Assembly: GCA_014360895.1 (NCBI GenBank)
Contig: JACIWQ010000002.1
Coordinates: 6,629-70,628 of the forward strand
Origin: Thermoflexales bacterium
GTDB taxonomy: Bacteria; Chloroflexota; Anaerolineae; B4-G1; DUEL01
Reading direction: 5' to 3'
Length of the DNA stretch: 64,000 bases
Shown here: piece after piece, positions 8,346 through 33,723 of the stretch
How positions within the stretch are numbered: position 1 is the stretch's first letter
Layout: each line of letters opens with the position of its first letter
Notes under the pieces: generated by a model
Database searches by the model: none
What the model was told of the DNA's origin: nothing
The model's input: only the letters and a program-made list of their open reading frames with translations
Made by a program: the position numbers and the translations under genes

Positions 8346-8640
8346 CATATCGGGTCTGCGCCACCGCAGCATAGGCCGCCAGGCTGGTCTGGGTATAGAC
8401 GAACAGCCCGCGCTACGGCATAAGGTCATTGCGAGGGCACGGAGTGCCCGAAGGGTCATTGCGAGGGCGCGCAGCGCCCGAGGCAATCCCCAGAAGCGAC
8501 GGGGGGATTGCTTCGCTGCCCTGACGGGCGGCTCGCAATGACGTAAGGTGACGGTCACCTTCAGTGACTGTCACCTTGTTCGCCCCTTCGGGCTCGCAAT
8601 GACCTTTGCGAAGGGGTTTGTGGGGAGCGCACCGGCCCCT
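8346..8640. repeat. Composite repeat: family D unit, then palindromic family A elements (GGTCATTGCGAG...CTCGCAATGACC) with an embedded family B palindrome (GGTGACGGTCACC/AGTGACTGTCACC)
   Basis: The same units recur at 15968, 16750, 19867, 45758-45872 and 62788. ORFs in the track here are spurious. Confidence 0.7.
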
Positions 8641-10845: not shown

Positions 10846-11643
10846 ATGTGGGACTTGTTGATTCTGAACCCAATGGTGAATCTGCTGCTGCTCTTTTACC
10901 GCCTTCTGGGCCACCAGACGGTGCTGGCCATCACGGCGCTCACGCTGGTGGTACGGCTGGCCGTCCTGCCACTGACGTTGAAGCAGCAGCAGTCCGCCCG
11001 CCGGATGCAGGAGTTGCAGCCGGAACTGGCAAAACTCCAGAAAAAGTACGCCAATGACAAAGAGGCACTGGCCCGGGAGCAGATGAAACTCTACCGGGAG
11101 GCCGGCATGAATCCGATGGCAGGGTGTCTGCCGCTGTTGATTCAACTGCCCCTCCTCTACGGCCTTTGGCAGGCCATTATGCGCACCCTGGCCGCCAGCC
11201 CAATGGAACTGGTCCGCCTCTCCCAGAACATCTACTCCTTCATCCCCGGCCTGACCTCCCTTATCCCGTTGCAGAACCGGTTCCTGTGGATGGACCTGGG
11301 CCAGCCGGACCCGTACTACGTCCTTCCGGTTCTGGTGGTGGTCACTTCCTGGCTTTCGCAGAAAATTCTGACTCCGCCTTCTACCGACCCCCAGTCGGCG
11401 GCGATGAACCAGCAGATGTTGATTATGATGCCGCTGATGTTCGGATTTTTCTCCATCTCCTTCGCTTCCGGGCTTTCCATTTACTTCATCATCTCCAACC
11501 TGGTCACCCTTCTCCAGTACTTCGTGACCCCGAGGCAGAAACCTGCCCAGGCGGTAGAGACAGAGGAGCCAAAGGAGGCGGAGCGGCCAAAGGGGCCGGA
11601 GCGGCCGCCCCGACCTCCCCGGCGAAAAGGCGGACGGAGATAA
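10846..11643 (+). CDS. yidC: Membrane protein insertase YidC (short Gram-positive/SpoIIIJ-like form)
   Basis: YidC/Oxa1 family, 265 aa with conserved TM segments and a basic C-terminal tail. Confidence 0.85.
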   Translation: MWDLLILNPMVNLLLLFYRLLGHQTVLAITALTLVVRLAVLPLTLKQQQSARRMQELQPELAKLQKKYANDKEALAREQMKLYREAGMNPMAGCLPLLIQLPLLYGLWQAIMRTLAASPMELVRLSQNIYSFIPGLTSLIPLQNRFLWMDLGQPDPYYVLPVLVVVTSWLSQKILTPPSTDPQSAAMNQQMLIMMPLMFGFFSISFASGLSIYFIISNLVTLLQYFVTPRQKPAQAVETEEPKEAERPKGPERPPRPPRRKGGRR

Positions 11644-11914: not shown

Positions 11915-12285
11915 AGCACCTTCGCCTTTTGGCCGATATGAATATCTCACCGAGAACTGTTGAGGCCATGCGGCATGAGGGCTGGGATATTGTCCGGGTC
12001 TCCCAGGTGCTGCCTGCTGACACTTCTGATGAAGAGATTCTGGAATTTGCCCGTCAAACAGGGCGGGTCGTGGTTACCCAGGATTTGGACTTTTCGGCCC
12101 TGCTGGCCCTGGAAGGTTGCAACCGCCCCAGTCTGGTGACTTTGCGATTAATGACGTCTGACCCGGAAACGGTCACTCGGACACTGCTAAAAGTACTGCC
12201 TGGAGTGGAACAGGCACTGAAAGTAGGCGCTGTTGCGACGATTGAAGAGGATGTCGTTCGCATTCGCCACCTGCCCATCCGGTGA
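11911..12285 (+). CDS. DUF5615 (PIN-like) domain protein, putative toxin partner of DUF433
   Basis: MKHLRLLADMNIS...GRVVVTQDLDF is a DUF5615 pattern. Its ATG overlaps the DUF433 stop by 4 bp (ATGA). Confidence 0.65.
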   Translation: MKHLRLLADMNISPRTVEAMRHEGWDIVRVSQVLPADTSDEEILEFARQTGRVVVTQDLDFSALLALEGCNRPSLVTLRLMTSDPETVTRTLLKVLPGVEQALKVGAVATIEEDVVRIRHLPIR

Positions 12286-12313
12286 AGGAACCATTCACTC
12301 TATGAGGGCATCA

Positions 12314-13042
12314 ATGAGCACAGAAAGCAAGATTTTCTTCGGCGAAACGGTAGATGCCGCCATCGCGGCCGGGCTTGCCGCACTGCGGCTCCCGCGCGAG
12401 GCGGTAGAGATTGAGATTCTGGATGAGGGCAGTCGGGGCATCCTGGGCATCGGCGCCCGGATGGCGCGGGTCCGGCTCACGCCGCTGGTCGCCCCGGAGA
12501 CCGCCCCCGCCCCTGCGCCGGCCCCCGCCCCAACCCCGACGGCCCCGCCGGCCACTCCGGAGTCGCCTGCTGCCGAGGTGGCCCGCTCCATCCTGGCGGA
12601 CCTCCTCCAGCATCTGGGCTTCTCCGCCGAAATCCAGGCCCGCATGGCGGAGCCGGCAACCGATGAGGAGACGACGACCCTTGTGCTGGACATTCAGACT
12701 GCCGGGGCGGATACGTTGATCGGCCCGCGAGGGGAAACCCTGGCCGCCCTCCAGCACATCCTGCGGCTGCTGGTCAACCGGAAAATGGGCCACATGGTCA
12801 ACCTGGTGGTGGACGTCCAGGGCTACAAGGAACGGCGGGAGCAGAGCCTCCGCCGCCTGGCGGAGCGGATGGCCAGCCAGGCCGTCCGCAGCGGGCGCAC
12901 CGTCTACCTGGAGCCGATGCCTCCCTACGAGCGCCGCATCATCCACCTGGCGCTCCGCGACCACCCCGACGTCACCACCCAGAGCATCGGCGAGGGCAAC
13001 CGCCGCCGGGTCACCATCATCCCCCGCGTCGGCAAAGAGTAG
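12314..13042 (+). CDS. jag: Jag/KhpB RNA-binding protein (Jag_N, KH and R3H domains)
   Basis: C-terminal R3H region (TVYLEPMPPYERRIIHLALRDHPDVTTQSIGEGNRRRVTI). The start was chosen at MSTESKIFFGETVDAAI; an alternative ATG lies at 12302. Confidence 0.75.
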   Translation: MSTESKIFFGETVDAAIAAGLAALRLPREAVEIEILDEGSRGILGIGARMARVRLTPLVAPETAPAPAPAPAPTPTAPPATPESPAAEVARSILADLLQHLGFSAEIQARMAEPATDEETTTLVLDIQTAGADTLIGPRGETLAALQHILRLLVNRKMGHMVNLVVDVQGYKERREQSLRRLAERMASQAVRSGRTVYLEPMPPYERRIIHLALRDHPDVTTQSIGEGNRRRVTIIPRVGKE

Positions 13043-14301: not shown

Positions 14302-15099
14302 ATGATCATCTACGCCTTCGCCAACCAGAAGGGCGGCGTGGGCAAGACCACGACCGCCGTCAACCTGGCGGCCTACCTGGCCCACTGGGGCCAGCGGGTC
14401 CTGCTGGTGGATATGGACCCCCAGGCCAACGCGACGGTCAGCCTGGGGGTGGACCGCGCCGCGCTCCCGGCCACGGTCTACGATGCCCTGGTGCGCGAGA
14501 CGCCGCTGGACTCTATCATCACCCCGACCCGCTGGGTGCGGCTGGACCTGCTGCCCAGTTCGGCCCAACTGGCCGGCGCGACGGTGGAATTGGTTCCGAT
14601 GCTGGCCCGGGAGCGGCGGCTGGAAATGGCCCTCTCCGGCCTGGGCCAGCGGTACGACTACGTCCTGATTGATTGTCCCCCGAGCCTGGGCATCCTCACC
14701 GTCAACGCGCTGGTCGCCGCCACCGGCGGCGTCATCATCCCCGTCCAGTGCGAGTACCTGGCCCTGGACGGCCTCTCCCAACTGATCCGCACGCTGGACC
14801 TGGTCCGCCGGTCCCTGAACCCCCGCCTGCGCCTGCGCGGCCTGGTGATGACCATGTTTGACTCGCGCACCCATCTCTCCCAGCAGGTGGTGGCGGAAGT
14901 GCGACGGTATTTCGGCGACCGGGTCTTCCGGACGATCATCCCGCGCAACGTCCGGTTGAGCGAGGCGCCCAGCCACGGGCTCCCCATTATGGCCTATGCC
15001 CCCCGCTCCCCGGGCGACCTGGCCTACCGGGCCCTGGCGTGGGAACTGCTCAGCGGCGACGGACGGGCGCCGTCGGCGGAGGTGGAACATGGCGGGTAA
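14302..15099 (+). CDS. parA: Chromosome partitioning ATPase ParA/Soj
   Basis: N-terminus IIYAFANQKGGVGKTTTAVNLAAYLA carries the deviant Walker A motif. Confidence 0.85.
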   Translation: MIIYAFANQKGGVGKTTTAVNLAAYLAHWGQRVLLVDMDPQANATVSLGVDRAALPATVYDALVRETPLDSIITPTRWVRLDLLPSSAQLAGATVELVPMLARERRLEMALSGLGQRYDYVLIDCPPSLGILTVNALVAATGGVIIPVQCEYLALDGLSQLIRTLDLVRRSLNPRLRLRGLVMTMFDSRTHLSQQVVAEVRRYFGDRVFRTIIPRNVRLSEAPSHGLPIMAYAPRSPGDLAYRALAWELLSGDGRAPSAEVEHGG

Positions 15100-15931
15100 G
15101 TTCGGCCTGGGCAGAGGATTGGAGGCGCTGATCCCCGTCGGCGAGGAGACGGCAGGCATCCTGGAGGTGCCGGTGGACGAGATCCGTCCCAACCCCCACC
15201 AGCCCCGCATGCTCATCCGGGACGACGAACTGGTGGAACTGGCCCTCTCCATCCAGACGCACGGCGTCCTTCAGCCCCTCATCGTCGTCCGGGAGGGGGA
15301 CGGCTACCAGTTGGTGGCGGGGGAGCGGCGGTGGCGGGCGGCCAAACTGGCTGGCCTGACGACGGTCCCCGTCATCGTCAAAGACCTGGCCCCCCAGCAG
15401 ACACTGGAACTGGCGCTGGTGGAAAACCTCCAGCGGAAGGACCTGAATCCGCTGGAGGAAGCAGCGGCCTACCGTCAACTGATAGAAGAATTCGGGCTGA
15501 CTCACGAGGAGGTGGCGCAGCGGGTGGGCCGGAGCCGGGTCGCCGTCACCAACACCCTGCGCCTGCTGAAGGCCACCGACGCGGTCAAGGAGGCGCTGCT
15601 GAATGGCCGCATCGGGGAGGGGCATGCCCGCGCGCTCCTGGCCCTGGAGGACCCCCAGGCCCAGGCCGCCGCGCTGCGCATTGTCCTGCGCCAGGGCCTC
15701 ACCGTCCGCCAGACGGAGGAACTGGTGGGGCGAATCCTGCAGACCCGGCCCCAGAAACCGACGGCCCGCCCTACCGCCCCCGAGGTACAGGCCCTGGAGG
15801 ACCGGTTCCGGCAGGCCCTGGGGACACGCGTCCAGGTCCGCCCGGGGAAGAAGGGAGGGCGGATCATCATCTACTACTACTCGGAGGAGGAACTGGAGGG
15901 GCTGTACGAACGGCTGACCGCGCGGGATTAA
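15089..15931 (+). CDS. parB: Chromosome partitioning protein ParB/Spo0J
   Basis: [16 protein letters not shown]...[13 protein letters not shown] plus an HTH region. The start is at ATG 15089 and overlaps the parA end. Confidence 0.85.
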
Positions 15932-15967
15932 CCTCGCGCCTGGCTACCTGACAGTTTCCACTGGGAG

Positions 15968-16054
15968 GGTCATTGCGAGGGCGCACAGCGCCCGAAGCAA
16001 TCTCCCGACAAGCTTCTGGAGATTGCTTCGCCCCCTTCGGGGGCTCGCAATGAC
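15968..16054. repeat. Family A palindromic MITE/REP-like element (single copy)
   Basis: Left arm GGTCATTGCGAGGGCGCACAGCGCCCGAAGCAATC, right arm GATTGCTTCGCCCCCTTCGGGGGCTCGCAATGAC. Confidence 0.75.
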
Positions 16055-16113
16055 ACCCCCGGAGGGGCATTCGGGAAGCGCAGAAGAGAAGTATCAGGTG
16101 GCTAGGCCTCGCG

Positions 16114-16707
16114 CTACAACGATACGACTCTTCCCGCCTGCATCAGCGTCTCGGCGATGGTGTACATGTTGGACACCTCGCCGACGGCCACCTTCTCCTT
16201 CAGCCCGTAGTACCCCAGACAGGTACCGCAGATCAGAATCTGGACGCCCTGCGCCTGGAGCGTCCGCAGGTCCTCCAGCACCGGCGACCCCTCCACGGTC
16301 AGTTTGACCCCGCTGTTGAAGAAGATGAGAACGTCGGGGAGGGGGCTGACCTCGTTGAGGGTGTGCAGGAAACCCCGGATGAGGATTTGCCCCAACTCCT
16401 CGTGTTCCCCCCGTCCCATAAACTCCGAGGGGACCACCAGGACCAGCGGGCCGCCGGACGGAGTCGGTGCCGGGGCGGGGGCAACCGCCGGGGCGGCCTC
16501 CCCCCGGCTAATGTGGAGATAAATCCCGTCCTCCCGCTCCTCGGCCCGGACGGTGTACCCCGCCTTCTCAGCCATCCGGGTCACGTTGTGGCGGGCGGTG
16601 TCGCTATCCACGATGGTCGTGACCGCGTCGCTTTCCCGCAGCGCGTCGCGGGTGAGCAGAACCGGCTGGGGGCATGGGAGCCCCCGGGCATCTACGGTTT
16701 TTGCCAT
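16114..16707 (-). CDS. yedF: Selenium metabolism protein YedF-like (TusA-like domain with CPQP motif plus a DsrE/DsrF-like domain)
   Basis: N-terminus AKTVDARGLPCPQPVLLTRDAL is TusA-like. The C-terminal DsrE-like fold carries ILICGTCLGYYG. Confidence 0.7.
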   Translation of the reverse strand: MAKTVDARGLPCPQPVLLTRDALRESDAVTTIVDSDTARHNVTRMAEKAGYTVRAEEREDGIYLHISRGEAAPAVAPAPAPTPSGGPLVLVVPSEFMGRGEHEELGQILIRGFLHTLNEVSPLPDVLIFFNSGVKLTVEGSPVLEDLRTLQAQGVQILICGTCLGYYGLKEKVAVGEVSNMYTIAETLMQAGRVVSL

Positions 16708-16749
16708 AGCGTCCTCCCCTAAAAGAGCGAAGTGTCAACAGTTCGCAAA

Positions 16750-17112
16750 GGTCATTGCGAGCCCGAAGGGCGAAGCAACCGGTCATTGCGAGCCCGAAGG
16801 GCGAAGCAACCGGTCACTGCGAGCCCCGAAGGGCGAAGCAACCGGTCATTGCGAGCCCGAAGGGCGAAGCAACCGGTCATTGCGAGCCCGAAGGGCGAAG
16901 CAATCGGTCATTGCGAGCCCGAAGGGCGAAGCAACCGGTCATTGCGAGCCCGAAGGGCGAAGCAACCAGTCATTGCGAGCCCGAAGGGCGAAGCAACCGG
17001 TCATTGCGAGCCCGAAGGGCGAAGCAATCTCCTCGTCGCTTCTGGGGATTGCTTCGGGGCTATCGCCCCTCGCAATGACCCTTCGGGCACTCTGTGCCCT
17101 CACAATGACCCG
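16750..17112. repeat. Tandem array of about 9 copies of a 31-bp unit (GGTCATTGCGAGCCCGAAGGGCGAAGCAACC), derived from the family A left arm and terminated by the right arm
   Basis: Strict 31-bp periodicity with no unique spacers, so this is a satellite-like expansion and not a CRISPR. ORFs across it are spurious. Confidence 0.8.
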
Positions 17113-17161: not shown

Positions 17162-18313
17162 TCACCCCTGGGCCAACCGGGCCACGGCCCGCAGCGCGGC
17201 GTCCACCTCATCCCGTGTGGTGAACGCCCCCAGCGCGAAGCGGACCGTCCCGGCGGGGAACGTCCCGATGGTCCGGTGGGCCGCCGGGGCGCAGTGGAGC
17301 CCCACCCGGCACATGATGCCGTACTCCTCGTCCAGCTGCATCCCCACCTCCGAGGGCTCCATCCCGGCGATGTTGAAGGAGACGACGGCCGTCCGCTGCC
17401 GCGCGTCGGCCGGGCCGTAAACGGTCACGCCGGGGATTTCCCGCAGGCCGTCCAGCAACCGCTGCGTCAGGGCCACCTCGTGGGCGCGGATGGCCTCCAC
17501 GCCCTGCTCCAGCACCCAGCGGACCCCGGCCTCCAGCCCCGCCAGCCCCACCGCGTTGGGCGTCCCGCTCTCGCACATATCCGGCAGGAAGTCCGGTTGT
17601 TCCTCCCGCTCGGAGCGGCTCCCCGTCCCGCCCCGGATGAGGGGCCGGAACTCCTCCAGCGGGACCCGGTCCCCGATGATAAGCCCGCCGGTGCCCGTCG
17701 GCCCGTAGAGGGACTTGTGTCCGGTGAAGGCCAGGAGGTCAATCCCGTCGGCCTGCATATCTATGGGGACGGCGCCCCCGCTCTGGGCCGCGTCCACCAG
17801 CAGCAGGGGCCCGTTCATCTCCCGCAGGGCCCGCCCGACCTCCGCCACCGGCAGAATTGTCCCCGTCACGTTGGAGGCGTGGTTGAGGACGACCAGGCGG
17901 GTGTGGGGCCGCAGGGCCGCCAGGACCGCCTGCGGGTCCAGCGTCCCCTCCGGAGAGCAGGGGACCACTGTCACCTCCACGCCCTCCCGCTCCAGGGCCC
18001 GCAGGGGGCGCATCACCGAGTTGTGCTCCATGCTGGAGGTGACGACGTGGTCGCCGGGCCGCAGCAGGCCCCGCAGAGCCAGGTTGATCCCCTCCGTGGC
18101 GTTGAGGCCGAAGACGACCCGCAGCGGGTCGGGGGCGCCGAAGAGTTGGGCCACGGCCTCGCGCGCGGCGTAGACGATACGTCCCGCCTCCACCGAGAGC
18201 CGGTGCCCGGAGCGGCCCGGGTTGGCGCCGACCTCGGTCATATAGCGGGCCATCGCCGCCAGGACCCCCGGCGGTTTGGGCCAGGACGTGGCCGCGTTGT
18301 CCAGGTAAATCAT
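17162..18313 (-). CDS. Class V aminotransferase-fold cysteine desulfurase/selenocysteine lyase (SufS/CsdA-like)
   Basis: IYLDNAATSWPKP ... FTGHKSLYGPTGTGGL (PLP lysine region) ... catalytic Cys region HCAPAAHR. Confidence 0.8.
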   Translation of the reverse strand: MIYLDNAATSWPKPPGVLAAMARYMTEVGANPGRSGHRLSVEAGRIVYAAREAVAQLFGAPDPLRVVFGLNATEGINLALRGLLRPGDHVVTSSMEHNSVMRPLRALEREGVEVTVVPCSPEGTLDPQAVLAALRPHTRLVVLNHASNVTGTILPVAEVGRALREMNGPLLLVDAAQSGGAVPIDMQADGIDLLAFTGHKSLYGPTGTGGLIIGDRVPLEEFRPLIRGGTGSRSEREEQPDFLPDMCESGTPNAVGLAGLEAGVRWVLEQGVEAIRAHEVALTQRLLDGLREIPGVTVYGPADARQRTAVVSFNIAGMEPSEVGMQLDEEYGIMCRVGLHCAPAAHRTIGTFPAGTVRFALGAFTTRDEVDAALRAVARLAQG

Positions 18314-18330: not shown

Positions 18331-18380
18331 CAGTCAGGTGACAGTCACCTCAAAGGTGACTGTCACCTGAATGTCACCTG
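18331..18380. repeat. Family B nested palindrome (CAGTCAGGTGACAGTCACCTCAAAGGTGACTGTCACCTG...)
   Basis: A perfect 15-bp palindrome and its complement separated by 3 nt. The same element occurs at 58476-58515, with partial copies at 8551-8582 and 62829-62850. Confidence 0.75.
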
Positions 18381-19423
18381 ACCACCTCAATCCCCGGCTC
18401 CCCCTCCACCACCTCCCCGACCTCCCAGAAGGGCTGGTCCAGCGCGCGGCAGGCCTCGGCGAATCGGTCCATCTCACCGGCGGGGATGGCGGCCAGAATC
18501 CCCCCGTTGGTCTGCGCATCATAGAGGAGCATCTGGACCTCTTCCGGGATGGACGGGTCAAAGGTCACCCACTGGCGGAAGTACATCTCGTTGGCCGCCG
18601 TCCCGCCGGGGAAGAGCCACTGCTCGGCCAGGGGACGGGCCGCCTCCAGGATGGGGACCCGGTCGGCCCGGACCCGGAAGCGGACCCCCGCCGCCAGGGC
18701 CATCTCCGCCGCGTGGCCCAGGAAGCCGAAGCCGGTGACGTCGGTGGCACCCCGGGCGGAGGTGGCGTGGACGGCCCGAACGGCGTCCCGGTTCAGCCGC
18801 AGCATCCAGGGGACGGCCTGGGCCAGCGCCTCCGGAGAGGCCTGCCCGGCCCGGTAGGCGGTGGTGATGACGCCGGAGCCCAACGGTTTGGTCAGGGCCA
18901 GCCGTTCGCCGGGCCGCGCGCCGCCCTTGAGGAGCAGCCGGTCCGGCGTCACCGTCCCGATGACGGCCAGGCCGTACTTGGGCTCCCGGTCGTCCATCGT
19001 GTGCCCGCCGGCGACGACGACGCCCGCCTCCCGGGCCTTCTCCATCCCGCCCCGGAAAATCTCGGCGGCGATCTCCGGCGGCATGTCCGAGGGGATGGCG
19101 GCCAGGTTGAGGGCCAGGAAGGGCGTCCCGCCCATCGCGTAGACGTCGCTGATGGAGTTAGCGGCGGCGATGGCGCCGTAGGTGTAGGCGTCGTCCACCA
19201 CCGGCGCGAAGAAGTCCGCCGTCGCCACCAGCAGGGTGCCGTTCTCCATCCGGTAGACGACGGCGTCATCGGGCGAGCCGAGCCCCACGACGACGCGCTC
19301 ACTTTCCTGAAGCGAATCCAGCAGGGGGCGCAGGACCTGCGCCAGGGCCCCGGGGGCCAGTTTTCCCGCTCAACCCGCGCAGGAGGCAATTTGGGTCAGC
19401 CGGGTAAAGTCTCGTTTGGGCAT
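18374..19423 (-). CDS. selD: Selenide, water dikinase SelD, predicted selenoprotein with in-frame UGA (Sec) at codon 18
   Basis: The body from 19288 matches SelD (DAVVYRMENGTLLVATADFF, AIR-synthase-like). Extending the same frame upstream gives MPKRDFTRLTQIASCAG-[TGA at 19370-19372]-AGKLAPGALAQVLRPLL. This aligns with the SelD N-terminal GAG-C/U-GCK active-site loop. There is an ATG at 19423 with a GGAGG RBS and an upstream in-frame stop at 19439. The ORF track split it at the UGA. Confidence 0.7.
19330..19369 (-). promoter_or_regulatory. Candidate bacterial SECIS hairpin immediately downstream of the selD UGA
   Basis: The GC stem-loop GGCCCCCGGGGCC (minus strand, 19346-19358) begins about 13 nt after the UGA. 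The fold and loop features were not verified. Confidence 0.3.
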
Positions 19424-19522
19424 GGGACCTCCCGGCCCTCACCCCTCCCCCAGCCCCTCCCCTCTCCCACTTACGGGAGAGGGGGTGGGGGTGGCCCGCA
19501 GGGCCGGGGGTGGGGATGAGGG

Positions 19523-19732
19523 CTACCGCGTCAGCGTCAACTTGAACTCGTCCCCCACCGCTTCCACCTGCACCTTGAGGCCGGCCCGTTCGGCCGCCCG
19601 GCGCACGTTCTCGCGGGAGGTGACGGTATCCACCAGAACTTCAATGGGGAATTGCCCCTCTTCCATTGCTTGCCGGGTCAGGATGACCGGCTGGGGGCAG
19701 GAGAGCCCCCGTGCGTCCACGACTTTCGCCAT
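19523..19732 (-). CDS. TusA-like sulfurtransferase-family small protein
   Basis: MAKVVDARGLSCPQPVILTRQAM has the TusA CPxP motif. 69 aa. Confidence 0.7.
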   Translation of the reverse strand: MAKVVDARGLSCPQPVILTRQAMEEGQFPIEVLVDTVTSRENVRRAAERAGLKVQVEAVGDEFKLTLTR

Positions 19733-19866: not shown

Positions 19867-20150
19867 GTCATTGCGAGGGAGCACAGCGCCCGAGGGGTCA
19901 TTGCGAGGGCGCGAAGCGCCCGAAGCAATCCCCAGAAGCGACGAGGAGATTGCTTCGCCCTTCGGGCTCGCAATGACTGTCCGGGGTCATTGCGAGGGCG
20001 TGCAGTGCCCGAAGCAATCCCCAGAAGCGACGAGGAGATTGCTTCGCCCTTCGGGCTCGCAATGACTGTCTGGGGTCATTGCGAGGGCGTGCAGCGCCCG
20101 AAGCAATCCCCATCCAGTGGAGACTGCTTCGCTCCGCTCGCAGTGAATAG
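19867..20150. repeat. Three or more tandem family A palindromic elements
   Basis: Repeated GGTCATTGCGAGGGCG..GCCCGAAGCAATCCCCAGAAGCGACGAGGAGATTGCTTCGCCCTTCGGGCTCGCAATGAC units. ORFs in the track here are spurious. Confidence 0.75.
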
Positions 20151-20265: not shown

Positions 20266-21417
20266 TCAATTTCTCTCCGCGCCCTCTGCGTTCTCTGCGG
20301 TCCACTCTTTCGCCCGCATCGTGAAGCCCAGCACGATGCAGAAGACCAGTCCGATGAGGACGGCGGCCTGTCCATAGGGACCGGGCCCGCCGACGGTCAG
20401 CACGCCCTCGGCCAGTTTGTCGGGAACGCCGGTCAGGGCCCAGTTGTGGGCGAAGCCCGCGCCGAAAATCATCCCCAGGACGAAGAGGGCCGCGTCGCCG
20501 TCGCCCTCACCGGAGAGGAAGAGTTGACGGCCCGGGCAGCCGCCCGCCAGGAGGAAGGCCAGCCCGGCCAATGCCATCCCCAGGAAGTTCCAGAGGTGGT
20601 TGGAGTGGGCCACCGGCTGGGCGGCAAAGCCCAGTTTGAACTGCCCCAGGGCCAGGTTGGTCACCAGCGCGACCACGAAGAGCGCGCCGACGCCGGTGAT
20701 GAGGTGGGTATCCCCCATCAGGATGACGTCCCGCCAGGCGCCCATCGTGCAGAAGCGGGTGCGCTGGGCCAGGAAGCCGATGACCAGCCCCACGGCCAGG
20801 GAGATGAGAATGGGCGCGTGTTTGGAGCCGGGCCCCTCGGTGCTGAAGAAGATGGGGCCGTCTTTGGTGAACTGGGGGCGGAAGAGGAGGAGCAGGAGGA
20901 GGCCCAGTATGATGACGGGCATCATCCAGCCCACGGGGGCCGGCGCCGGGCGGCTGCGGCCCAGGGAGTATCCCCGTTTGAGGAAGAAGACGCCCACGGC
21001 GATACCGGCGACCAGCCCGGCGGTGCCCACCAGGCCGTTCAGGTCGCCGCCCGCCAGCCGCAGCAGGGCCCGCCAGGGGCAGCCCAGGAAGGTCAGGGCG
21101 CCGATCATAGCGAACATGCCCAGGAGGAAGCGGACGATGGGGGCGGAGCCGGCGCGGGGCTTGAACTCCCGGAAGAGGAGGGCCGCGACCAGGGAGCCCA
21201 GGACGAAGGCGATGATTTCGGGCCGGATGTACTGGACGGTGGCGGCCCGGTGGAGGCCCAGGGCTCCGGCGATGTCCCGCTCAAAGCAGGCCACGCAGAT
21301 GCCCATGTTGGCGGGGTTGCCGGCCTTCTGCAGGAGCGGGGCCAGGAGGCCGATGACCGCCCCGGCCAGGAGGATGCCCCAGCGCGAGGCGAAGAAACGG
21401 GTGAGACGTTCGGACAT
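20266..21417 (-). CDS. yedE: YedE/YeeE-family putative selenium/sulfur-compound transporter
   Basis: Multi-TM protein with paired GICVACFERD and FCTMGAWRD motifs. The start was moved to the internal ATG at 21417 (MSERLTRFF), which has a GGAGG RBS. Confidence 0.7.
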   Translation of the reverse strand: MSERLTRFFASRWGILLAGAVIGLLAPLLQKAGNPANMGICVACFERDIAGALGLHRAATVQYIRPEIIAFVLGSLVAALLFREFKPRAGSAPIVRFLLGMFAMIGALTFLGCPWRALLRLAGGDLNGLVGTAGLVAGIAVGVFFLKRGYSLGRSRPAPAPVGWMMPVIILGLLLLLLFRPQFTKDGPIFFSTEGPGSKHAPILISLAVGLVIGFLAQRTRFCTMGAWRDVILMGDTHLITGVGALFVVALVTNLALGQFKLGFAAQPVAHSNHLWNFLGMALAGLAFLLAGGCPGRQLFLSGEGDGDAALFVLGMIFGAGFAHNWALTGVPDKLAEGVLTVGGPGPYGQAAVLIGLVFCIVLGFTMRAKEWTAENAEGAERN

Positions 21418-21720
21418 GGTGCACACCTCCCTGAATGGAATCTCCACGCGACCGGGCGGGGGCCCGGGCACGGCGTGGGCGCGAAAAAGCCGCCGTCGGC
21501 CCACGCCGGCGGCGGCTTCGGGAGGCGCGCCCCATATCCGTCTCAGGGTGCGGCATCCCCGCCGCCCCCGGACGCAGGCCCAGCGGTTCTCGGGCGCCAA
21601 CCGGCGCCCCGCCGATGCGATCAGGTGCGGCGGTGATACCAGAGGGTCATGTCTTGCTCCCTTGCCGATACTACCGAAAGTATACACCAAGATGGCGGAG
21701 AACGCAAGCTGCATGTTCCC

Positions 21721-27345: not shown

Positions 27346-29496
27346 CTACAGATACCGCTGCACCACAGCGACGACGTCCGGGTAGTCAATCCCCAGCCGC
27401 TTCAACGTCTCCAGCGTGGGGACGCCATCCCGGGTCCAACCCCGGCGGGCGTAGACGGCGTCCTTCAGCCGCTCGTACTGCTCCTCCCGGTATTGGCGCA
27501 GCGCGGCCAGTTTCTCCTGGGTCGTCATCTTCGCCGGGTCCAGCCCCAGCAGTTCCCGCAACTGTTTGTCGTACCGCTCGGCGCGGGACTCGTACTCCTC
27601 CACCGTCACCGGCCCCATAGAGCGATAGGGGACGTTGTCGTGTTCCCGGCGGCCGTAGCCCCGGCGCAGGTTGAAGACCCGCTGGAAGTTGTAGACCCGC
27701 TCGGACATGGTGATGAGGTCCTCGCGGGTAATCTGCTTGCCCGTCACGCCGGAGAAGAGGTCCACGTAGTTCTGGACGTGAGCCGGGATTTTGGCCGGTT
27801 CGGAGGTGTACTTGTTGTCGGGCGGGATGATGTCGTTCCAGGGGAGTTTGCAATGGCCCACCAGGCCGAACCAGGTGCGGAACATCGGGAAGTAGTGGAG
27901 CGCCTCCGCCTTGTCCTCAAAGGTGGGCAGCAGGTTGCTGACCATGTCCATAAAGATGAGCCAGGCCTCGTCGTGCTGGGGACCCTTGTTGGCCAGACCG
28001 TAGCCGCCCTGCTGCGCCAGCGACTCTTTGGAGACGTACTCGGAGTACTCCAGCCCCTTGGCCTCCATCCCGATGTCCTGGACGAACTGGGGGTCGGCGC
28101 CGAAGTGCTCCACGAAGTACTTCTTCATAAAGCGGATGCCCTGCCCGGCGATCTTGCCGAAGCCCTCGCCCCGGGCCATCTGGTGGAGCAGTTCTATGGC
28201 CGCGTCGGCGTTGCCGAAGCGGAGTTCCAGCCCGCCGGTCTTCTCTTTATCCAGAACCCCGGCCTCGTAGCACTCCATCACGAAGGCGGTGAGGGTGCCG
28301 AAGGAGATGGTGTCTATCCCGTAGGTGTCGCAGTAGAAGTTAATTTCCAGGATGGCGTCGGGGTCAAAGATGCCGCAGTTGGTGCCGACACCGGCCACCG
28401 TCTCGTACTCCGGCCCGTCCACGATGACCTTCTGGCCCTTGTAGGGGCCGGTGCGGACGGTGTAGCCGTCCACGGCGTGGGAGCAGGACATGGTGCAACC
28501 GTACCAGCAGCCGTCGGGGAGGCCCTGGCGGAAGCGGGACTCCCAGACATCGCCGTTGACTTTGGAGGCGTCGGGATGGCCGCCGTATTTGAAGTTGTGG
28601 ACGGGGAGGAGGTCATAGTCGCTCATAATCTGGACCAGGTAGGTGGTCCCCCGACGGCGCATGCGGTTCTGGGAGTCGTCGTAGTCGTGGATCTCCTTAT
28701 GCAGGCGCATACCGGCGCGGGCGATGCGCTCCGGGTCGGCGGGGTGGACAGAGTCGGCGCGGACAGGCGGGCTCTTGACCACCAGCGCCTTAATGTGTTT
28801 ATTCCGGAAGACGGTGCCGGTGCCGCCCCGGCCGGCCTGCTTGAAGCGGAACGCGCCCCGGCGGCGATCGTAGAAGGCGAAGTTGAGGCAGCCGATGCGG
28901 GTGTGCTCCGCCCCTTTTCCGGCGGAGACGGCGGACATGAAGTACCGGTCCTCCTCCTTCTCCGCCATCTGCCGGATGAGCCACTCGCCGATGAGGTGGG
29001 TGTCCACCGGGGCATCGGGGGCCTCCTCTATGGTGATGCGGCCCTGCTGCCCGTCTATGACGACGATGACCTCCCGGTCGGCCTTGCCCTGGATCTCTAT
29101 GGCGTCCCATCCGGCGAACTTGAGGAGGGGGCCGAAGTGGCCGCCGACATTGGAGTCTATGGGGATGTCGGTGAGGGGGGAGATGGTGACGACCAGGGAC
29201 TTGCCGGAGCCGGGGTACTGGGTGATGCCGCCGATGGGGCCGGAGGAGATGACGATTTCGTTCTCCGGGTCGTTCCACTTCGTGTCGTCGCGGGTCCCCT
29301 GCCAGAGGAGCCAGAGGCCGAACCCCCGGCCGCCGATGAACTTCTCCTTCATCTCCTCGGTGACCGGTTTGGCGGCGATGGTGTAGTCGGAGAGGTTGAC
29401 GTAGAGGGTCTGCCCGGTGTAGCCCCGCTCCACCGGCGGGACGGTGTAGGTGTATTCGGCCAGAACCTTGCGGGTGGGTGAAGACTGGTCAGTCAT
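27346..29496 (-). CDS. Aldehyde:ferredoxin oxidoreductase family (tungstopterin AOR-like)
   Basis: AOR_N and AOR_C domains (FIGGRGFGLWLLWQ...). The start was moved to ATG 29496, which has a GGAGGA RBS. Confidence 0.8.
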   Translation of the reverse strand: MTDQSSPTRKVLAEYTYTVPPVERGYTGQTLYVNLSDYTIAAKPVTEEMKEKFIGGRGFGLWLLWQGTRDDTKWNDPENEIVISSGPIGGITQYPGSGKSLVVTISPLTDIPIDSNVGGHFGPLLKFAGWDAIEIQGKADREVIVVIDGQQGRITIEEAPDAPVDTHLIGEWLIRQMAEKEEDRYFMSAVSAGKGAEHTRIGCLNFAFYDRRRGAFRFKQAGRGGTGTVFRNKHIKALVVKSPPVRADSVHPADPERIARAGMRLHKEIHDYDDSQNRMRRRGTTYLVQIMSDYDLLPVHNFKYGGHPDASKVNGDVWESRFRQGLPDGCWYGCTMSCSHAVDGYTVRTGPYKGQKVIVDGPEYETVAGVGTNCGIFDPDAILEINFYCDTYGIDTISFGTLTAFVMECYEAGVLDKEKTGGLELRFGNADAAIELLHQMARGEGFGKIAGQGIRFMKKYFVEHFGADPQFVQDIGMEAKGLEYSEYVSKESLAQQGGYGLANKGPQHDEAWLIFMDMVSNLLPTFEDKAEALHYFPMFRTWFGLVGHCKLPWNDIIPPDNKYTSEPAKIPAHVQNYVDLFSGVTGKQITREDLITMSERVYNFQRVFNLRRGYGRREHDNVPYRSMGPVTVEEYESRAERYDKQLRELLGLDPAKMTTQEKLAALRQYREEQYERLKDAVYARRGWTRDGVPTLETLKRLGIDYPDVVAVVQRYL

Positions 29497-29579
29497 TGCT
29501 CTTCCTCCGAGTTCAAATTTGTACTTCTCTTTAAATCTGCGGAGCAAAATTAAACTTTTCGGCTCAAAAGTTTAATTTG

Positions 29580-31626: not shown

Positions 31627-33678
31627 TTATCTCTCCGGCTCGGGGCGGATCAGCCCGTGCTCTATCTCCTCTTGTAGCAACTTCAGGTCAGCGTCTACCA
31701 TCATTTTGACCAATTCCTCAAAGGAGACGGTGGGCTCCCAACCCAGGACCCGGCGGGCCTTAGAGGGGTCGGCGACCAGCAGGTCCACTTCGGCGGGGCG
31801 CATATAGCGGGGGTCCTGGATGACGTAATCCCGCCAGTCCAGCCCGACGTGGGCGAAGGCGATCTCGCAGAGTTCCCGCACCGAGTGGGTCTGGCCGGTG
31901 CCGACGACGTAGTCATCGGGGGCGGGTTGCTGGAGCATCAACCACATGGCGCGGACGTAGTCCCCGGCGAAGCCCCAGTCCCGGCGGGCATCCAGGTTGC
32001 CCAGCCGCAGTTCCTTCGCCAGTCCCAGTTTGATCTTCGCCACGCCGTAGGAGACCTTGCGAGTGACGAATTCCAGGCCCCGACGGGGGGAGTTATGGAT
32101 CCACCCCTGCCCAACCCCGGCATGGAAAGTGCCGGATTGGGTGGCGAGGTCAAACAGCCAGCCTCTATACGGGACGGGAGTGGTCTGGACGACCTCGGAG
32201 AGCGGACGCCGCAAGTGCTGACCCTTCTGCCCCGGAACCCCAGGGGAGTTGAGATTGATTTGGTAGTAGAGGCGACCGTCCCGCTCTTCCAGGCAGAGGA
32301 TGGCCCGCTGGTCCAGAGTGACCCGGGCTAACCAGTACAACCCGGCGGCCAGGGGGGCAGAGGCCGTTTTGAACCCCTTGAACTCGTACCGGACGGGGGC
32401 CCGCTGCAGGCCATCCCCGGCATTGTACCCCCGCAAAAAGGCCAGCCGGGCCTCCGGTCCGGCGTTCAGCACCCGTTGGGGAATCCGTTTGTGGCCGGAA
32501 CGGGTGTAGATGGTGCTTCGGATATAGCGGCCGTACTCGTTGGCCCCCGGAAGGTACAACTGACAGACCGGCTCTCCTCCCTCAAATCCACTGGGGTGTA
32601 CGGAGAACCGACTGCGGCAGCCGATCACCTGCCGGGCCACTTCCGCCACCTGTTCCAGAAACTGGACATCCTGACTGGTAATCTGGATTTTTCCCTCCTC
32701 GCTGATATATCCATCGGCCACGATGACGCCCAGCAGCCATGCCTCTGCTTCGGTCATCTGAATGGCATTGGTCGGCGGGGGGAGTTCTATCAGGGCCAGA
32801 TGGTCCCCGGGGCGCACCTCCTCCGTCCGTCGGGAAGAGGGCCGGCCGTTTTCTCCAACGAATACCTGATGGTCTGCGGTGGTGTGATAGACGGCCCCCC
32901 GAGCGGCCACGCGGTACACCTCTTTGTTCAGTTTGCGCTCAAAGCCGTTCCAGGTCGCCGTCATACAGGTGACCGGTGTCCATCCGCCCGCATCCCATAC
33001 TTCCAGGGGGTCGTCCGGGTCCACCTCGGTGGTGAAGCGGGTGGCGGTGTGGGGTTCGGTCCGGTGAGGAACAACATCCTCTATGGGCAGGATGTCTATC
33101 AGGCCATCCCGCCGGATAATCACCGGGGTCTCGCCTGTCACGCATTCGTGGTTGAACAGGATGCCGGAGACCGCATAGATACCGAAAGACTCCCGGTAGT
33201 TGACCGTGATCCAGTGGCCGTAGACCTTGGCCACTCCGTAGGGGCTGCGGGGGTAGAAGGGGGTCAGTTCGTTCTGGGGGACCTCCCGGACCTTGCCGAA
33301 CATCTCTGACGAACTGGCCTGATAGAAACGGATGCTGGGGTCTACGGTGCGGATAGCTTCCAGCATTCGGGTGACCCCCAGCGCGGTGACCTCGCCGGTG
33401 AAGACCGGTTGCTCCCACGAGGTGGGGACGAAGGACTGGGCGGCCAGGTTGTAGACCTCGTCTGGCTCGTATTCCCGCAGGATGGAGATGAGAGACCCCT
33501 GGTCCAGCAGGTCGCCGGAGACCAGGGTGATTTTGTCCTGGATGTGCTGGATGCGGGAGAAGTTGACCGTGCTGGTGCGGCGCACCATGCCGATGACTTC
33601 GTACCCTTTCTCCAGCAAAAATTCCGCCAGATACGAACCGTCCTGTCCGGTGATACCGGTGATTAAGGCTCGGGGCAT
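31627..33678 (-). CDS. gmd: GDP-mannose 4,6-dehydratase interrupted by an intein
   Basis: Exteins match Gmd ([25 protein letters not shown]...GILFNHE // [12 protein letters not shown]...). The start was moved to ATG 33678, which has an AGGAGG RBS. Confidence 0.85.
32092..33144 (-). mobile_element. Intein (351 aa) with a LAGLIDADG homing-endonuclease domain, inserted in gmd between NHE and SPRRG
   Basis: N-terminal Cys directly after LFNHE. Two LAGLIDADG blocks ([25 protein letters not shown]). C-terminal HN followed by the extein Ser. Confidence 0.8.
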
Positions 33679-33691
33679 TGTACCTCCTAAC

Positions 33692-33723
33692 GCAAGTTGG
33701 CAAGTTGGCAAGTTGGCAAGTTA
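33692..33723. repeat. Tandem octamer (CAAGTTGG) x4
   Basis: Perfect tandem copies that are the reverse complement of the octamers at 34191-34254. Confidence 0.8.

Follow-up and report, generated by a model that had tools for sequence, protein, structure and literature searches.

The selD gene in the 64 kb stretch of DNA analysed here (the window) is very probably the gene of a Sec-containing selenophosphate synthetase, in which an in-frame UGA is read as Sec by way of a SECIS downstream of it. The initial annotation had taken selD to be a selenoprotein gene whose UGA had been missed by ORF calling, and this is backed by the alignment of the active site, by a TGA here in every one of 80 related copies and by purifying selection. 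The gene bears the sequence features of a selD with an internal UGA and is homologous to selD over its full length; the UGA is deeply conserved and is flanked on either side by codons under purifying selection. From these observations we infer Sec insertion at the UGA and the hairpin that is contacted by SelB.

Reading frame of selD

The following features were located.

18374–19423, minus strand: full selD coding sequence by translation, 349 codons including one Sec codon, then the TGA stop 18376–18374
19421–19423, minus strand: selD start codon ATG, read from the sequence and at the same position in relatives
19428–19432, minus strand: GGAGG, 4 nt 5′ of the ATG, read from the sequence; putative ribosome-binding site
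19370–19372, minus strand: in-frame UGA, predicted Sec, residue 18, opposite Cys17 of E. coli SelD

Seventeen codons (MPKRDFTRLTQIASCAG) precede the in-frame TGA at 19372–19370, after which the selD frame runs via AGKLAPGALAQVLRPLLDSLQESERVVVGLGSPDDA into an ORF of 304 amino acids. This ORF was called from a GTG at 19288 by a mechanical ORF list and ends at the TGA 18376–18374. A longer N-terminus of SelD is excluded by a further in-frame TGA stop (19441–19439) 5′ of the ATG. The ATG at 19423, the GGAGG, the in-frame TGA and the upstream in-frame stop had all been pointed out in the initial annotation and were each found in place. Relatives L001–L022 share the ATG at the start of selD, save for a GTG in L010. 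A predicted product of 349 residues with Sec18, not the 304-residue ORF, is supported as the real product of selD.

Identity of the protein and its active site

The extended protein was identified as SelD by TIGR00476 (341.5 bits, cut-off 125, residues 8–314) and scored 303.9 bits against both PRK00943 and NF002098 (cut-off of the latter 299, residues 7–342). Residues 6–342 were aligned with residues 5–338 of the chain of E. coli SelD (PDB entry 3u0o) with an E value of 5e-66, and A. aeolicus SelD, the nearest solved relative (PDB entries 2yye and 2zod), was also aligned in the form of 2yye. The TGA had been matched to the active-site position of SelD in the initial annotation; the alignment indeed puts it opposite Cys17 of the E. 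coli enzyme and opposite the Cys of the SSG-C-AAK loop of the A. aeolicus enzyme. The stretch C-A-G-(UGA)-A-G-K thereby faces G-A-G-C-G-C-K in 3u0o and S-S-G-C-A-A-K in 2yye, and the Lys three residues after the UGA is aligned with the conserved Lys (Lys20 in E. coli SelD). The Asp-containing blocks with which the PurM fold binds nucleotide and metal (DDA, TxDFF, SDxxAMGG and TDxTGFG) were all aligned by HMMER with 3u0o and 2yye, with identical or conservatively exchanged residues, and PF00586 and PF02769 are present in the SelD homologs. The predicted product is proposed to be a PurM-fold enzyme that would form selenophosphate from ATP and selenide. The E. coli enzyme shares the blocks DDAxVY, TxDFF, SDxxAMGG and TDVTGFG with the protein described here; it differs in carrying Cys17 (TGC) at the UGA site, with no need of a SECIS, and in the peptide that follows the loop (ISPKVLETIL compared with LAPGALAQVL).

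Comparison of the extended translation with Cys-type SelD proteins had been suggested as a check, and in these the same peptide is encoded continuously with Cys at the UGA site. Three full-length homologs with 54–55% identity (P0073, P0090 and P0091) have TGC (Cys) at the UGA position within the motif L-T-x-[LI]-[AS]-[ST]-C-A-G-C-A-x-K; at the equivalent site CAG-C-A.K in the Cys-type homologs corresponds to CAG-TGA-AGK in the present gene.

Conservation of the UGA and of the upstream codons

TGA was found at the Sec codon in all 80 selD copies from 79 related loci (43–96% identity), which belong to Anaerolineae, Thermoflexales, Dehalococcoidia, Thermomicrobia, Chloroflexia and some Alphaproteobacteria; more distant SelD homologs have Cys at this position. 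Within the 16–17 codons 5′ of the TGA, none of the 80 copies contains a stop in the selD frame, while the other two frames of the same region contain stops in 78 and 16 of the 80 copies, respectively. With the TGA in every copy and the selD frame upstream of it always open, this pattern goes far beyond what chance would give. When close relatives are compared, the codon differences in the 16 codons that run from the start to the UGA are synonymous in 102 cases and non-synonymous in 22. These codons are under purifying selection, and the peptide that they encode is still conserved in amino-acid sequence in copies whose overall identity is as low as 43%. The concern that the upstream frame might not be conserved in related genomes is answered by the same comparison, in which the frame is kept.

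TGA ends 12 of the 35 well-supported genes of the window, selD included, so the recoding of UGA is local and the genetic code is unchanged. Two further in-frame TGA sites (34218 and 16737) were returned by a calibrated GC3-based scan of the window. Both fall within repeats or DNA of low complexity and were rejected as not credible.

Hairpins downstream of the UGA

Two hairpins were found in the coding sequence after the UGA.

19346–19358, minus strand: hairpin 1, GGCCC-CCG-GGGCC, +15 to +27 from the U of the UGA, −7.9 kcal/mol
19327–19343, minus strand: hairpin 2, GGCGCAG-GUC-CUGCGCC, 7 bp stem, GUC loop at 19336–19334, −11.3 kcal/mol

Hairpin 1 is GC-rich and begins 11 nt after the UGA; hairpin 2 begins 26 nt after it, has its loop at 33 nt and lies within the codons for L-A-Q-V-L-R-P. 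A GC-rich hairpin about 13 nt past the UGA had been put forward in the initial annotation as a candidate SECIS. Such a hairpin is present (from 11 nt) and conserved, but there is no G in its first two loop positions, and it is hairpin 2 with its GUC loop that fits the published model and bears the comparative signal.

Published limits for a bacterial SECIS are an apical loop of 3–9 nt, an upper stem of 4–16 bp, a G in the first two loop positions, a distance of 16–37 nt from the UGA and a minimum free energy of ≤ −7.5 kcal/mol (PMC13188914). Hairpin 2 lies within every one of these limits, that is, within the loop, stem, spacing and energy ranges of the bSECISearch consensus, with its 33 nt spacing near the top of the 16–37 nt range. 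This four-criteria test was rejected as SECIS evidence and kept as a membership check: 66 of 73 Sec-type sequences pass it, yet so do 76 of 150 coding 60-mers taken as background from the window (51%), so the generic criteria do not discriminate here. Folding of the region after the UGA, also suggested as a check, gave an energy no better than that of shuffled sequence (z = −0.66 and −0.58, i.e. about −0.6), and the hairpin can therefore not be supported by stability alone; folding energy, which is uninformative in DNA as GC-rich as this, was likewise discarded as SECIS evidence. In GC-rich genomes, bacterial SECIS criteria and folding energy would accordingly discriminate almost nothing, half of all coding 60-mers passing.

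The real support for a SECIS is comparative and comes from pairing across relatives and from stem codons that are frozen beside loop codons that are free. In 73 sequences the consensus helix of hairpin 1 (+15..+19 / +24..+28) is 74.8% paired, the window itself folding one position off the consensus register (+15..+19 / +23..+27), and the helix of hairpin 2 is 82.6% paired, with both sides changed at five of the seven pairs. The two-hairpin structure is 79.3% paired compared with 38–60% in slid registers and was matched by none of 500 shuffles; its pair 36–40 is GC in 55 sequences, AU in five, GU in three and CG in one. Synonymous codon use is frozen within the stems (0.30–1.02 bits), while the two loops and the flanks are free to vary (1.7–2.1 bits): in hairpin 1 the 3′ arm has entropies of 0.30 bits at its Glu codon and 0.37 bits at its Ala codon and the loop 1.84 bits at its Pro codon, and in hairpin 2 the stem codons have 0.46–1.02 bits compared with 1.76 bits for the loop. 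Synonymous sites frozen in stems and free in loops make a clean SECIS signal in GC-rich DNA. RNA-level selection acts on both hairpins.

The loop of hairpin 2 contains an adjacent G and U that are nearly invariant among 74 sequences (G in 71, U in 74), followed by a third base that varies (C in 28, G in 23, U in 19, A in four). A perfect 7 bp stem with a GUN triloop was found in none of 4874 background coding 60-mers. Neither the ordinary selD stop UGA (18376–18374) nor the two Cys-type selD genes that served as the sole Cys controls have such a hairpin. The two Cys-type genes are also without the AQVLR peptide, which argues that RNA, not protein, constrains AQVLR. Relatives keep hairpin 2 by two coding solutions, L-R-P and L-S-P, the latter with a bulged U.

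E. coli-type SECIS elements combine an adjacent unpaired G and U in the loop with an upper stem from which a U is bulged out (PMC8704476). The present structure resembles these elements (fdhF, fdnG) and the bSECISearch model in being a coding stem-loop with GU in a small apical loop (PMC13188914, PMC8704476). It differs in that hairpin 2 of the window has no bulged U, which among relatives is confined to the L-S-P class and lies on the 3′ side, in that its loop is as far as 33 nt from the UGA, and in that the GU-loop hairpin is preceded by another conserved hairpin, which takes up the stretch after the UGA. Judged on these sequence comparisons, hairpin 2 is the best SECIS candidate, ranking above hairpin 1, which may contribute the lower portion, or a spacer, to the recoding structure.

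The reverse assignment, a Sec-type gene in which SelB binds hairpin 1 (19358–19346) and hairpin 2 is a by-product of the peptide AQVLR, appears distinctly unlikely. It draws on the start of hairpin 1 at 11 nt past the UGA, the same distance as in the minimal SECIS of E. coli fdhF, on the conservation of hairpin 1 with the synonymous sites of its 3′ arm frozen, and on five distant relatives (L054, L057 and, from Thermomicrobia, L056, L068 and L078) in which the only good hairpin lies nearer to the position of hairpin 1 and has a GUU or GGA loop. Most relatives, however, have CUGA, CCGA or CAGA as the loop of hairpin 1 and so fall outside criterion (ii) of the published model (PMC13188914), whereas the G and U of the hairpin 2 loop are kept almost throughout. 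Origin of hairpin 2 as a by-product is also at odds with its retention through both L-R-P and the bulged L-S-P solution and with the loss of AQVLR from Cys-type SelD.

With hairpin 2 as the SECIS, translation would begin at AUG 19423 and the ribosome would reach the UGA at codon 18. The stem-loop just 3′ of the UGA would serve as a bacterial SECIS, for which 19343–19327 (GUC loop) is the best candidate, with 19358–19346 belonging to one conserved structure together with it. SelB·GTP·Sec-tRNA(Sec) would bind the SECIS and insert Sec in place of termination, and translation would proceed to the ordinary UGA stop at 18376–18374. The predicted product would have 349 residues, with Sec18 and Lys21 in a flexible glycine-rich N-terminal loop. 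A further step, to a distinct bipartite SECIS throughout a Chloroflexota-wide SelD clade in which SelB binds hairpin 2, 33 nt from the UGA, and the conserved hairpin 1 stands before it, where E. coli normally has the hairpin bound by SelB, is speculative and rather unlikely. If it were correct, hairpin 1 would be a folded spacer, a selenium-responsive element or a translational-pausing element and would bring hairpin 2 near the ribosome entry site, and an RNA need, not protein function, would have fixed L-A-Q-V-L-[RS]-P.

Neighbouring selenium genes and Sec machinery

selD lies among further genes of selenium metabolism.

19523–19732, minus strand: TusA/SirA-like protein of 69 amino acids, short YedF N-domain type with CPxP; N-terminal part of TIGR03527, E value 1e-13
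20266–21420, minus strand: YedE-family putative selenium transporter, start approximate; TIGR04112, 488.5 bits (cut-off 200)
17162–18313, minus strand: class-V aminotransferase of the cysteine desulfurase / SclA-like Sec lyase type; TIGR01977, 469 bits (cut-off 377)
[quoted passage not shown]

The TusA-like gene is the upstream and the aminotransferase gene the downstream neighbour of selD, and all four genes are syntenic with selD in relatives. The aminotransferase scores 402.5 bits against NF040779 (SclA), below the cut-off of 525, so its Sec specificity is unproven. Plausibly, YedE, the TusA-like protein, the SclA-like lyase or desulfurase and YedF deliver selenium to SelD. The cluster resembles selD-linked selenium clusters described previously, in which YedE, a SirA/TusA-like protein, a PLP enzyme of the Sec lyase family and YedF stand beside selD (Lin et al., 2015; PMC5322559); it differs from them in containing no selA, selB or selC, no LysR_Se and no DUF3343 gene.

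No tRNA-Sec was found in the 64 kb window with Rfam and ARAGORN, nor any other RNA family, and Pfam annotation of 40 ORFs from across the window gave neither selA nor selB. In one relative from Anaerolineaceae (L063) the order is selD-selA-selB-tRNA-Sec (TIGR00474, 566 bits; TIGR00475, 334 bits; RF01852, 71 bits), and in a second relative (L032) selA (592 bits) lies 8 kb from selD; selB was not found after selA at the edge of the L032 locus, where a convergent gene stands instead. L032 also has the repeat family of the window, and its neighbouring genes are 75–80% identical. Five alphaproteobacterial loci have tRNA-Sec together with selD; their selA and SelB-like GTPase ORFs were recognized by motif search only. 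A search with the SelB of L063 returned thousands of Chloroflexota SelB proteins, none tied to the selD contigs. In seven Chloroflexota SelB loci, which are not assignable to the lineage of the window, selA-selB was seen, and in four of them also tRNA-Sec; four high-GC Chloroflexota SelB loci belong to assemblies other than those of the closest selD relatives. For the source genome itself, we infer the presence of selA, selB and selC.

The absence of selA, selB and selC from the window is what would speak for decoding of the UGA as something other than Sec, either by a tRNA for Trp or Cys that is near-cognate or acts as a suppressor, or through reassignment of UGA. Such decoding is very unlikely. 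Reassignment conflicts with the use of TGA as the stop of selD and of other genes in the window; in addition, the UGA sits exactly at the catalytic Sec/Cys site, the GU-loop hairpin is under RNA-level selection and missing from the two Cys-type genes, and relatives with the same TGA have selA, selB and tRNA-Sec adjoining selD.

Read as a Sec codon, the UGA is in keeping with the distribution of the trait: SelD and FdhA are the most widespread bacterial selenoproteins and Chloroflexi are among the phyla with the Sec trait (PMC1794560, PMC5322559, PMC13188914). The uncultured Anaerolineae/Thermoflexales-like Chloroflexota lineage is not individually described in the cited selenoprotein literature. 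selD marks this Anaerolineae lineage, which is probably thermophilic, as a likely Sec user with a cluster for selenium uptake and recycling, which implies that other selenoproteins, mis-annotated too, are encoded elsewhere in the genome.

Annotation of Sec-type selD genes

Known Sec-type SelD proteins (Zhang et al., 2006, PMC1794560; Mariotti et al., 2015, PMC4561486) are alike in their PurM-like AIRS/AIRS_C fold, in the position of Sec in an N-terminal glycine-rich loop three residues before Lys (motif G-U-A-x-K), in a coding-region stem-loop after the UGA and in the shortening of the gene by gene finders. The selD described here shows no essential difference from them; the loop of its candidate SECIS is 33 nt away from the UGA, with an extra conserved hairpin in between. 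Sec-type SelD is long established, and the present gene is an ordinary case that leaves selenoprotein biology unchanged. Its main value is for annotation, the predicted SelD product having 349 residues with Sec18.

The ORF call would be right if SelD started after the UGA, at GTG 19288 or elsewhere, and the upstream 17 codons were an open untranslated leader. Position 19288 is the start in the mechanical ORF list, and downstream starts were chosen by gene callers in nearly all of the best 120 homologs listed. A protein that starts at 19288 is nevertheless devoid of the loop aligned with E. coli Cys17 and of the Lys three residues on, and the catalytic Cys/Sec of SelD and the Lys three residues later are required for activity. 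The initial annotation was correct in holding that the call at 19288 drops the catalytic N-terminus, since the frame 5′ of it carries the Cys17-equivalent loop. A start after the UGA is also contradicted by the excess of synonymous over non-synonymous differences in the upstream codons, by the conserved position of the start codon and ribosome-binding site, by the lack of stops in all 80 copies and by the Cys-type homologs, which encode the upstream peptide without a break; such a start is extremely unlikely. A sequencing or assembly error or a selD pseudogene, for which nothing speaks beyond the window being a single sequence, has a negligible probability given the same TGA in 80 independent copies from 79 assemblies and a gene that is otherwise intact, under strong purifying selection and with a GC3 of 0.93; both were ruled out, as was a changed genetic code with TGA ending 12 of 35 genes.

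Sec-type selD genes are routinely shortened by gene callers. Nearly all of the best 120 database proteins listed have 290–330 amino acids and cover 83–94% of the query, and the N-termini inspected among them start just after the UGA (e.g. MAPGALAQVLRPLL). From their lengths and N-termini, nearly all of these 120 closest entries listed look cut short at the UGA in the same way as the ORF call here. An NCBI record named SelD (P0001) looks shortened likewise.

Reading frame and protein identity

The sequence features of selD, all on the minus strand, are as follows.

19441-19439, minus strand: in-frame TGA closing the selD frame upstream
19432-19428, minus strand: ribosome-binding site GGAGG, 4 nt upstream of the ATG
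19423-19421, minus strand: start codon ATG
19372-19370, minus strand: in-frame TGA inside selD, preceded by 17 codons
18376-18374, minus strand: terminal stop TGA

The initial annotation had described the frame accurately to the base. In the ORF list a 304-aa selD ORF starts at GTG 19288. The 17 codons from the ATG to the in-frame TGA encode MPKRDFTRLTQIASCAG and the frame past the TGA runs on as AGKLAPGALAQVLRPLLDSLQESERVVVGLGSPDDA..., entering the 304-aa ORF; the complete reading comprises 349 codons. For profile comparison Cys was put in place of the in-frame stop. The 349-aa protein matched the SelD equivalog TIGR00476 from residue 8 with 341.5 bits (cut-off 125) and PRK00943 with 303.9 bits. 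The best solved-structure matches were E. coli SelD (3u0o; E 5e-66, residues 6-342 versus 5-338) and Aquifex aeolicus SelD (2yye; E 1.5e-62). The in-frame TGA aligned with Cys17 of the E. coli protein, with a Lys three residues on, and with the corresponding loop-motif Cys of the A. aeolicus chain, in line with its proposed position in the active-site loop. The Asp-containing blocks DDA, TxDFF, SDxxAMGG and TDVTGFG were all aligned.

Translation upstream of the UGA

A SelD homologue search covered 5.8 billion proteins. Among the 120 closest homologues listed, nearly all were 290-330 aa in length and covered just 83-94% of the query; the N-termini that were read start right past the UGA (e.g. 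MAPGALAQVLRPLL), as expected of gene callers because these stop at UGA. One of these truncated-looking entries, P0001, is listed at NCBI as 'selenide, water dikinase SelD' and in addition runs on to a later stop. For this SelD clade the apparent truncation is a systematic annotation error. The extended translation aligned as a full-length SelD, and the few full-length homologues (P0073, P0090 and P0091; 54-55% identical) carry the same motif with Cys, LTSL[SA][ST]CAG-C-A[SA]KL.

Scanning a single genome of each GTDB species for selD gave 80 loci, which belong to Anaerolineae, Thermoflexales/Thermoflexia, Caldilineae, Dehalococcoidia, Thermomicrobia, Chloroflexia and, in a few cases, Alphaproteobacteria. 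The selD N-terminus was included in 79 loci, corresponding to 80 copies, as one locus (L035) holds two tandem TGA-type copies (TGA at 10031 and 11264). TGA was present at the Sec codon in 80/80 copies across 43-96% protein identity. In the close relatives L001-L022 the start position is shared and is occupied by ATG (by GTG in L010). Compared with the window, their 16 codons from start to TGA show 102 synonymous and 22 non-synonymous changes. Upstream of the TGA the selD frame is free of stops in all 80 copies, whereas the two alternative frames contain stops in 78 and 16 copies. The upstream frame, on whose conservation in related genomes the initial annotation had made its reading depend, is therefore conserved.

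A SelD start downstream of the UGA, as in the ORF list, is excluded by the conservation of the TGA, the constraint on the upstream frame and the stop counts. A pseudogene and a sequencing error at the TGA are excluded by the same comparisons of the 80 copies. A reassigned UGA code is excluded because TGA is an ordinary stop in the window, ending 12 of the 35 Pfam/NCBIfam-supported genes, selD itself among them.

Hairpins downstream of the UGA

Two hairpins were identified by folding (positions in parentheses take the first base of the UGA as +1).

19358-19346, minus strand (+15 to +27): hairpin 1, GGCCC-CCG-GGGCC, initially proposed as the SECIS candidate
19343-19327, minus strand (+30 to +46): hairpin 2, GGCGCAG-GUC-CUGCGCC

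In close relatives folding enclosed both in an outer stem. The folding energy of the region compared with dinucleotide shuffles (MFE z-scores of -0.66 and -0.58) gave no support for a SECIS, so that the suggested folding check provided no evidence from stability. Published bSECIS constraints comprise a 3-9 nt loop, a 4-16 bp stem, a G within the first two loop positions, a distance of 16-37 nt from the UGA and an energy of -7.5 kcal/mol or lower (PMC13188914). Hairpin 2 falls within them (loop GUC, 7-bp stem, 33-nt spacing, -11.3 kcal/mol), the GU loop of the conserved two-hairpin arrangement lying near the far end of the spacing range; the loop of hairpin 1 (CCG in the window; CUGA, CCGA or CAGA in most relatives) is without the G required at positions 1-2. 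Using an implementation made for this analysis, 66 of 73 Sec-type relatives passed these criteria, which barely discriminate because 76 of 150 (51%) random coding 60-mers of the 64% GC window passed too. SECIS calls from generic criteria or folding energy alone are thus unreliable in GC-rich genomes. Among 4874 background coding 60-mers of the window, none had a perfect stem of 7 bp closed by a GUN triloop. SelB binding requires 'unpaired adjacent G and U' (PMC8704476), which the GU loop of hairpin 2 fits; hairpin 2 of the window differs from the E. coli-type SECIS in having no bulged U.

Unlike the generic criteria, the comparative evidence does discriminate. In a gap-free MAFFT alignment (A1) of 73 distinct 60-nt segments the two-helix structure was 79.3% paired, compared with 38-60% once the register was shifted by 1-3 nt, and the observed pairing or covariation score was reached by 0/500 shuffles. 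In hairpin 2, five of seven pairs vary on both sides; pair 36-40, for instance, is GC (55), AU (5), GU (3) or CG (1). Because the region is coding sequence, codon choice given the amino acid was used as an internal control.

Codon entropy (bits) downstream of the selD UGA

Hairpin 1 stem: Glu +24, 0.30; Ala +27, 0.37 (GCC 50/53)
Hairpin 2 stem: Ala +33, 0.65 (GCG 59/66); Gln +36, 0.46; Leu +42, 1.02; Arg +45, 0.98
Loops: Pro +21 (loop 1), 1.84; Val +39 (loop 2), 1.76 (GUC 25, GUG 23, GUU 19, GUA 3)
Flanks: Ala +6, 1.74; Pro +48, 1.83; Leu +51, 2.07

The first base of the hairpin 2 loop is G in 71/74 sequences and the second is U in 74/74. The hairpin is preserved in two encodings, as CUG-CGC-CC for L-R-P or as CUG-UCG-CC for L-S-P, the latter with a U bulged out. 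Both the hairpin and the AQVLR peptide are absent from the two Cys-type selD genes examined (L081 and L082). Given the conserved pairing, the frozen stem codons, the GU loop and the hairpin-less Cys types, hairpin 2 is taken as the probable SelB-binding element and hairpin 1 as a putative conserved accessory or spacer helix. The stem-loop of the initial annotation, hairpin 1, is present, but it is hairpin 2 that fits the GU-loop requirement. The comparison appears to be a clear demonstration of RNA structure constraining a peptide, L-A-Q-V-L-[RS]-P.

Selenocysteine machinery

The window contained no tRNA gene, no Rfam match and no selA or selB among its 40 annotated ORFs. An Anaerolineaceae MAG (L063) carries selD(TGA), selA, selB and tRNA-Sec consecutively (TIGR00474, 566 bits, cut-off 268; TIGR00475, 334 bits, cut-off 242; RF01852, 71 bits, gathering score 47), and in L032 selA (592 bits) lies 8 kb from the TGA-type selD. 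tRNA-Sec adjoins selD in five alphaproteobacterial loci (L034, L065, L066, L074 and L080), where a PLP motif of the SelA type and a GTPase ORF resembling SelB, both indicated by motif search, follow just downstream. A protein search found SelB to be abundant in Chloroflexota MAGs; seven selB loci fetched from four look-ups, none of which could be linked to an assembly of the relatives closest to the window, held selA-selB in all cases and tRNA-Sec in four. [quoted passage not shown]

Selenium-utilisation cluster

selD is situated within a selenium-utilisation cluster with every gene on the minus strand.

20266-~21420, minus strand: YedE (TIGR04112, 488 bits)
19523-19732, minus strand: TusA/SirA-like protein, 69 aa (profile match)
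17162-18313, minus strand: cysteine desulfurase/SclA-like Sec lyase (TIGR01977, 469 bits; SclA model, 402 bits, below the 525 cut-off)
16114-16707, minus strand: YedF (TIGR03527, 204 bits)

The gene order is kept in close relatives; more distant Anaerolineae have it rearranged, with the genes linked nonetheless. An association of selD with genes for YedE, SirA-like proteins, Sec lyase and YedF has already been described (PMC5322559). YedE, SclA and TusA of L032 are 74-80% identical to those of the window. Across L029, L031, L032 and L035 the identities are 79-81% for YedE, 73-76% for SclA, 72-76% for TusA and just 51-52% for SelD, which suggests replacement or accelerated evolution of selD inside an otherwise conserved cluster. 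The 100-nt spacer from the tusA-like stop to the selD ribosome-binding site contains an inverted repeat, CCCCTCTCCC-GTAAGT-GGGAGAGGGG on the mRNA strand (~19459-19484, minus strand), with no U-run after it; candidate roles are those of an attenuator, a repeat element or a processing site.

Proposed mechanism

Standard bacterial Sec insertion is the most likely mechanism at the selD UGA. When the ribosome arrives at UGA-18, SelB·GTP·Sec-tRNA(Sec) would dock on the GU-loop hairpin, Sec would be inserted and translation would proceed to the UGA stop, which is without a hairpin; we infer both the insertion itself and the identity of the SelB-binding hairpin. SelD would then make selenophosphate from selenide and ATP using Sec18 and Lys21 of the mobile N-terminal loop, and the neighbouring genes would import selenium and then relay or recycle it. 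As the source of the selenium donor for the Sec-tRNA that its own synthesis needs, SelD would make the system feed back on itself, as is known of Sec-type SelD. Direct observations comprise the sequence features of selD, its homology and its protein- and RNA-level conservation; the Sec-type explanation as a whole is very probably correct. The initial reading of selD as a Sec-type selenoprotein is upheld by the 80/80 TGA codons, the SelD models and the conserved upstream frame, with its SECIS assignment corrected. The gene belongs to a known kind, since the SECIS elements of bacterial Sec-type selD were mapped earlier (PMC4561486); its modest specifics are the clade-wide database truncation, the two-hairpin arrangement and the RNA constraint on the peptide.

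Repeats and other genes of the window

A REP/MITE-like repeat family with the core GTCATTGCGAG has 26 matches in the window versus 1.06 expected (family located at 16731-17072, 19867-20112, 15958-16065, 8425-8603, 45832 and 62797). Its members include at least nine 31-nt units in tandem (16731-17072) as well as units of 89 nt (19894-20112). The arrays flanking the sclA-selD-tusA block are inverted relative to each other, and their 59-nt arms (17000-17058 and 20008-20066) are 100% complementary. Among the Chloroflexota loci fetched, the core was found in L005, L031 and L032 only, with 18 copies in L032.

Beside the selenium cluster lie four genes of a set typical of the chromosome-origin region.

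10846-11643, plus strand: yidC
12233-13042, plus strand: jag/KhpB
14302-15099, plus strand: parA
14996-15931, plus strand: parB, which adjoins the cluster in relatives too

A GDP-mannose 4,6-dehydratase (31627-33711, minus strand) is 694 aa in length, about twice the normal length, and its Pfam match is split by an insert of ~350 aa that matches LAGLIDADG_3 (residues 324-362, E 1.7e-5) and, weakly, Hom_end; the insert probably represents an intein that carries a homing endonuclease. An aldehyde:ferredoxin oxidoreductase (AFOR_N + AFOR_C; 27346-29547, minus strand), typically a tungsten enzyme, is located 6 kb from the selenium cluster.
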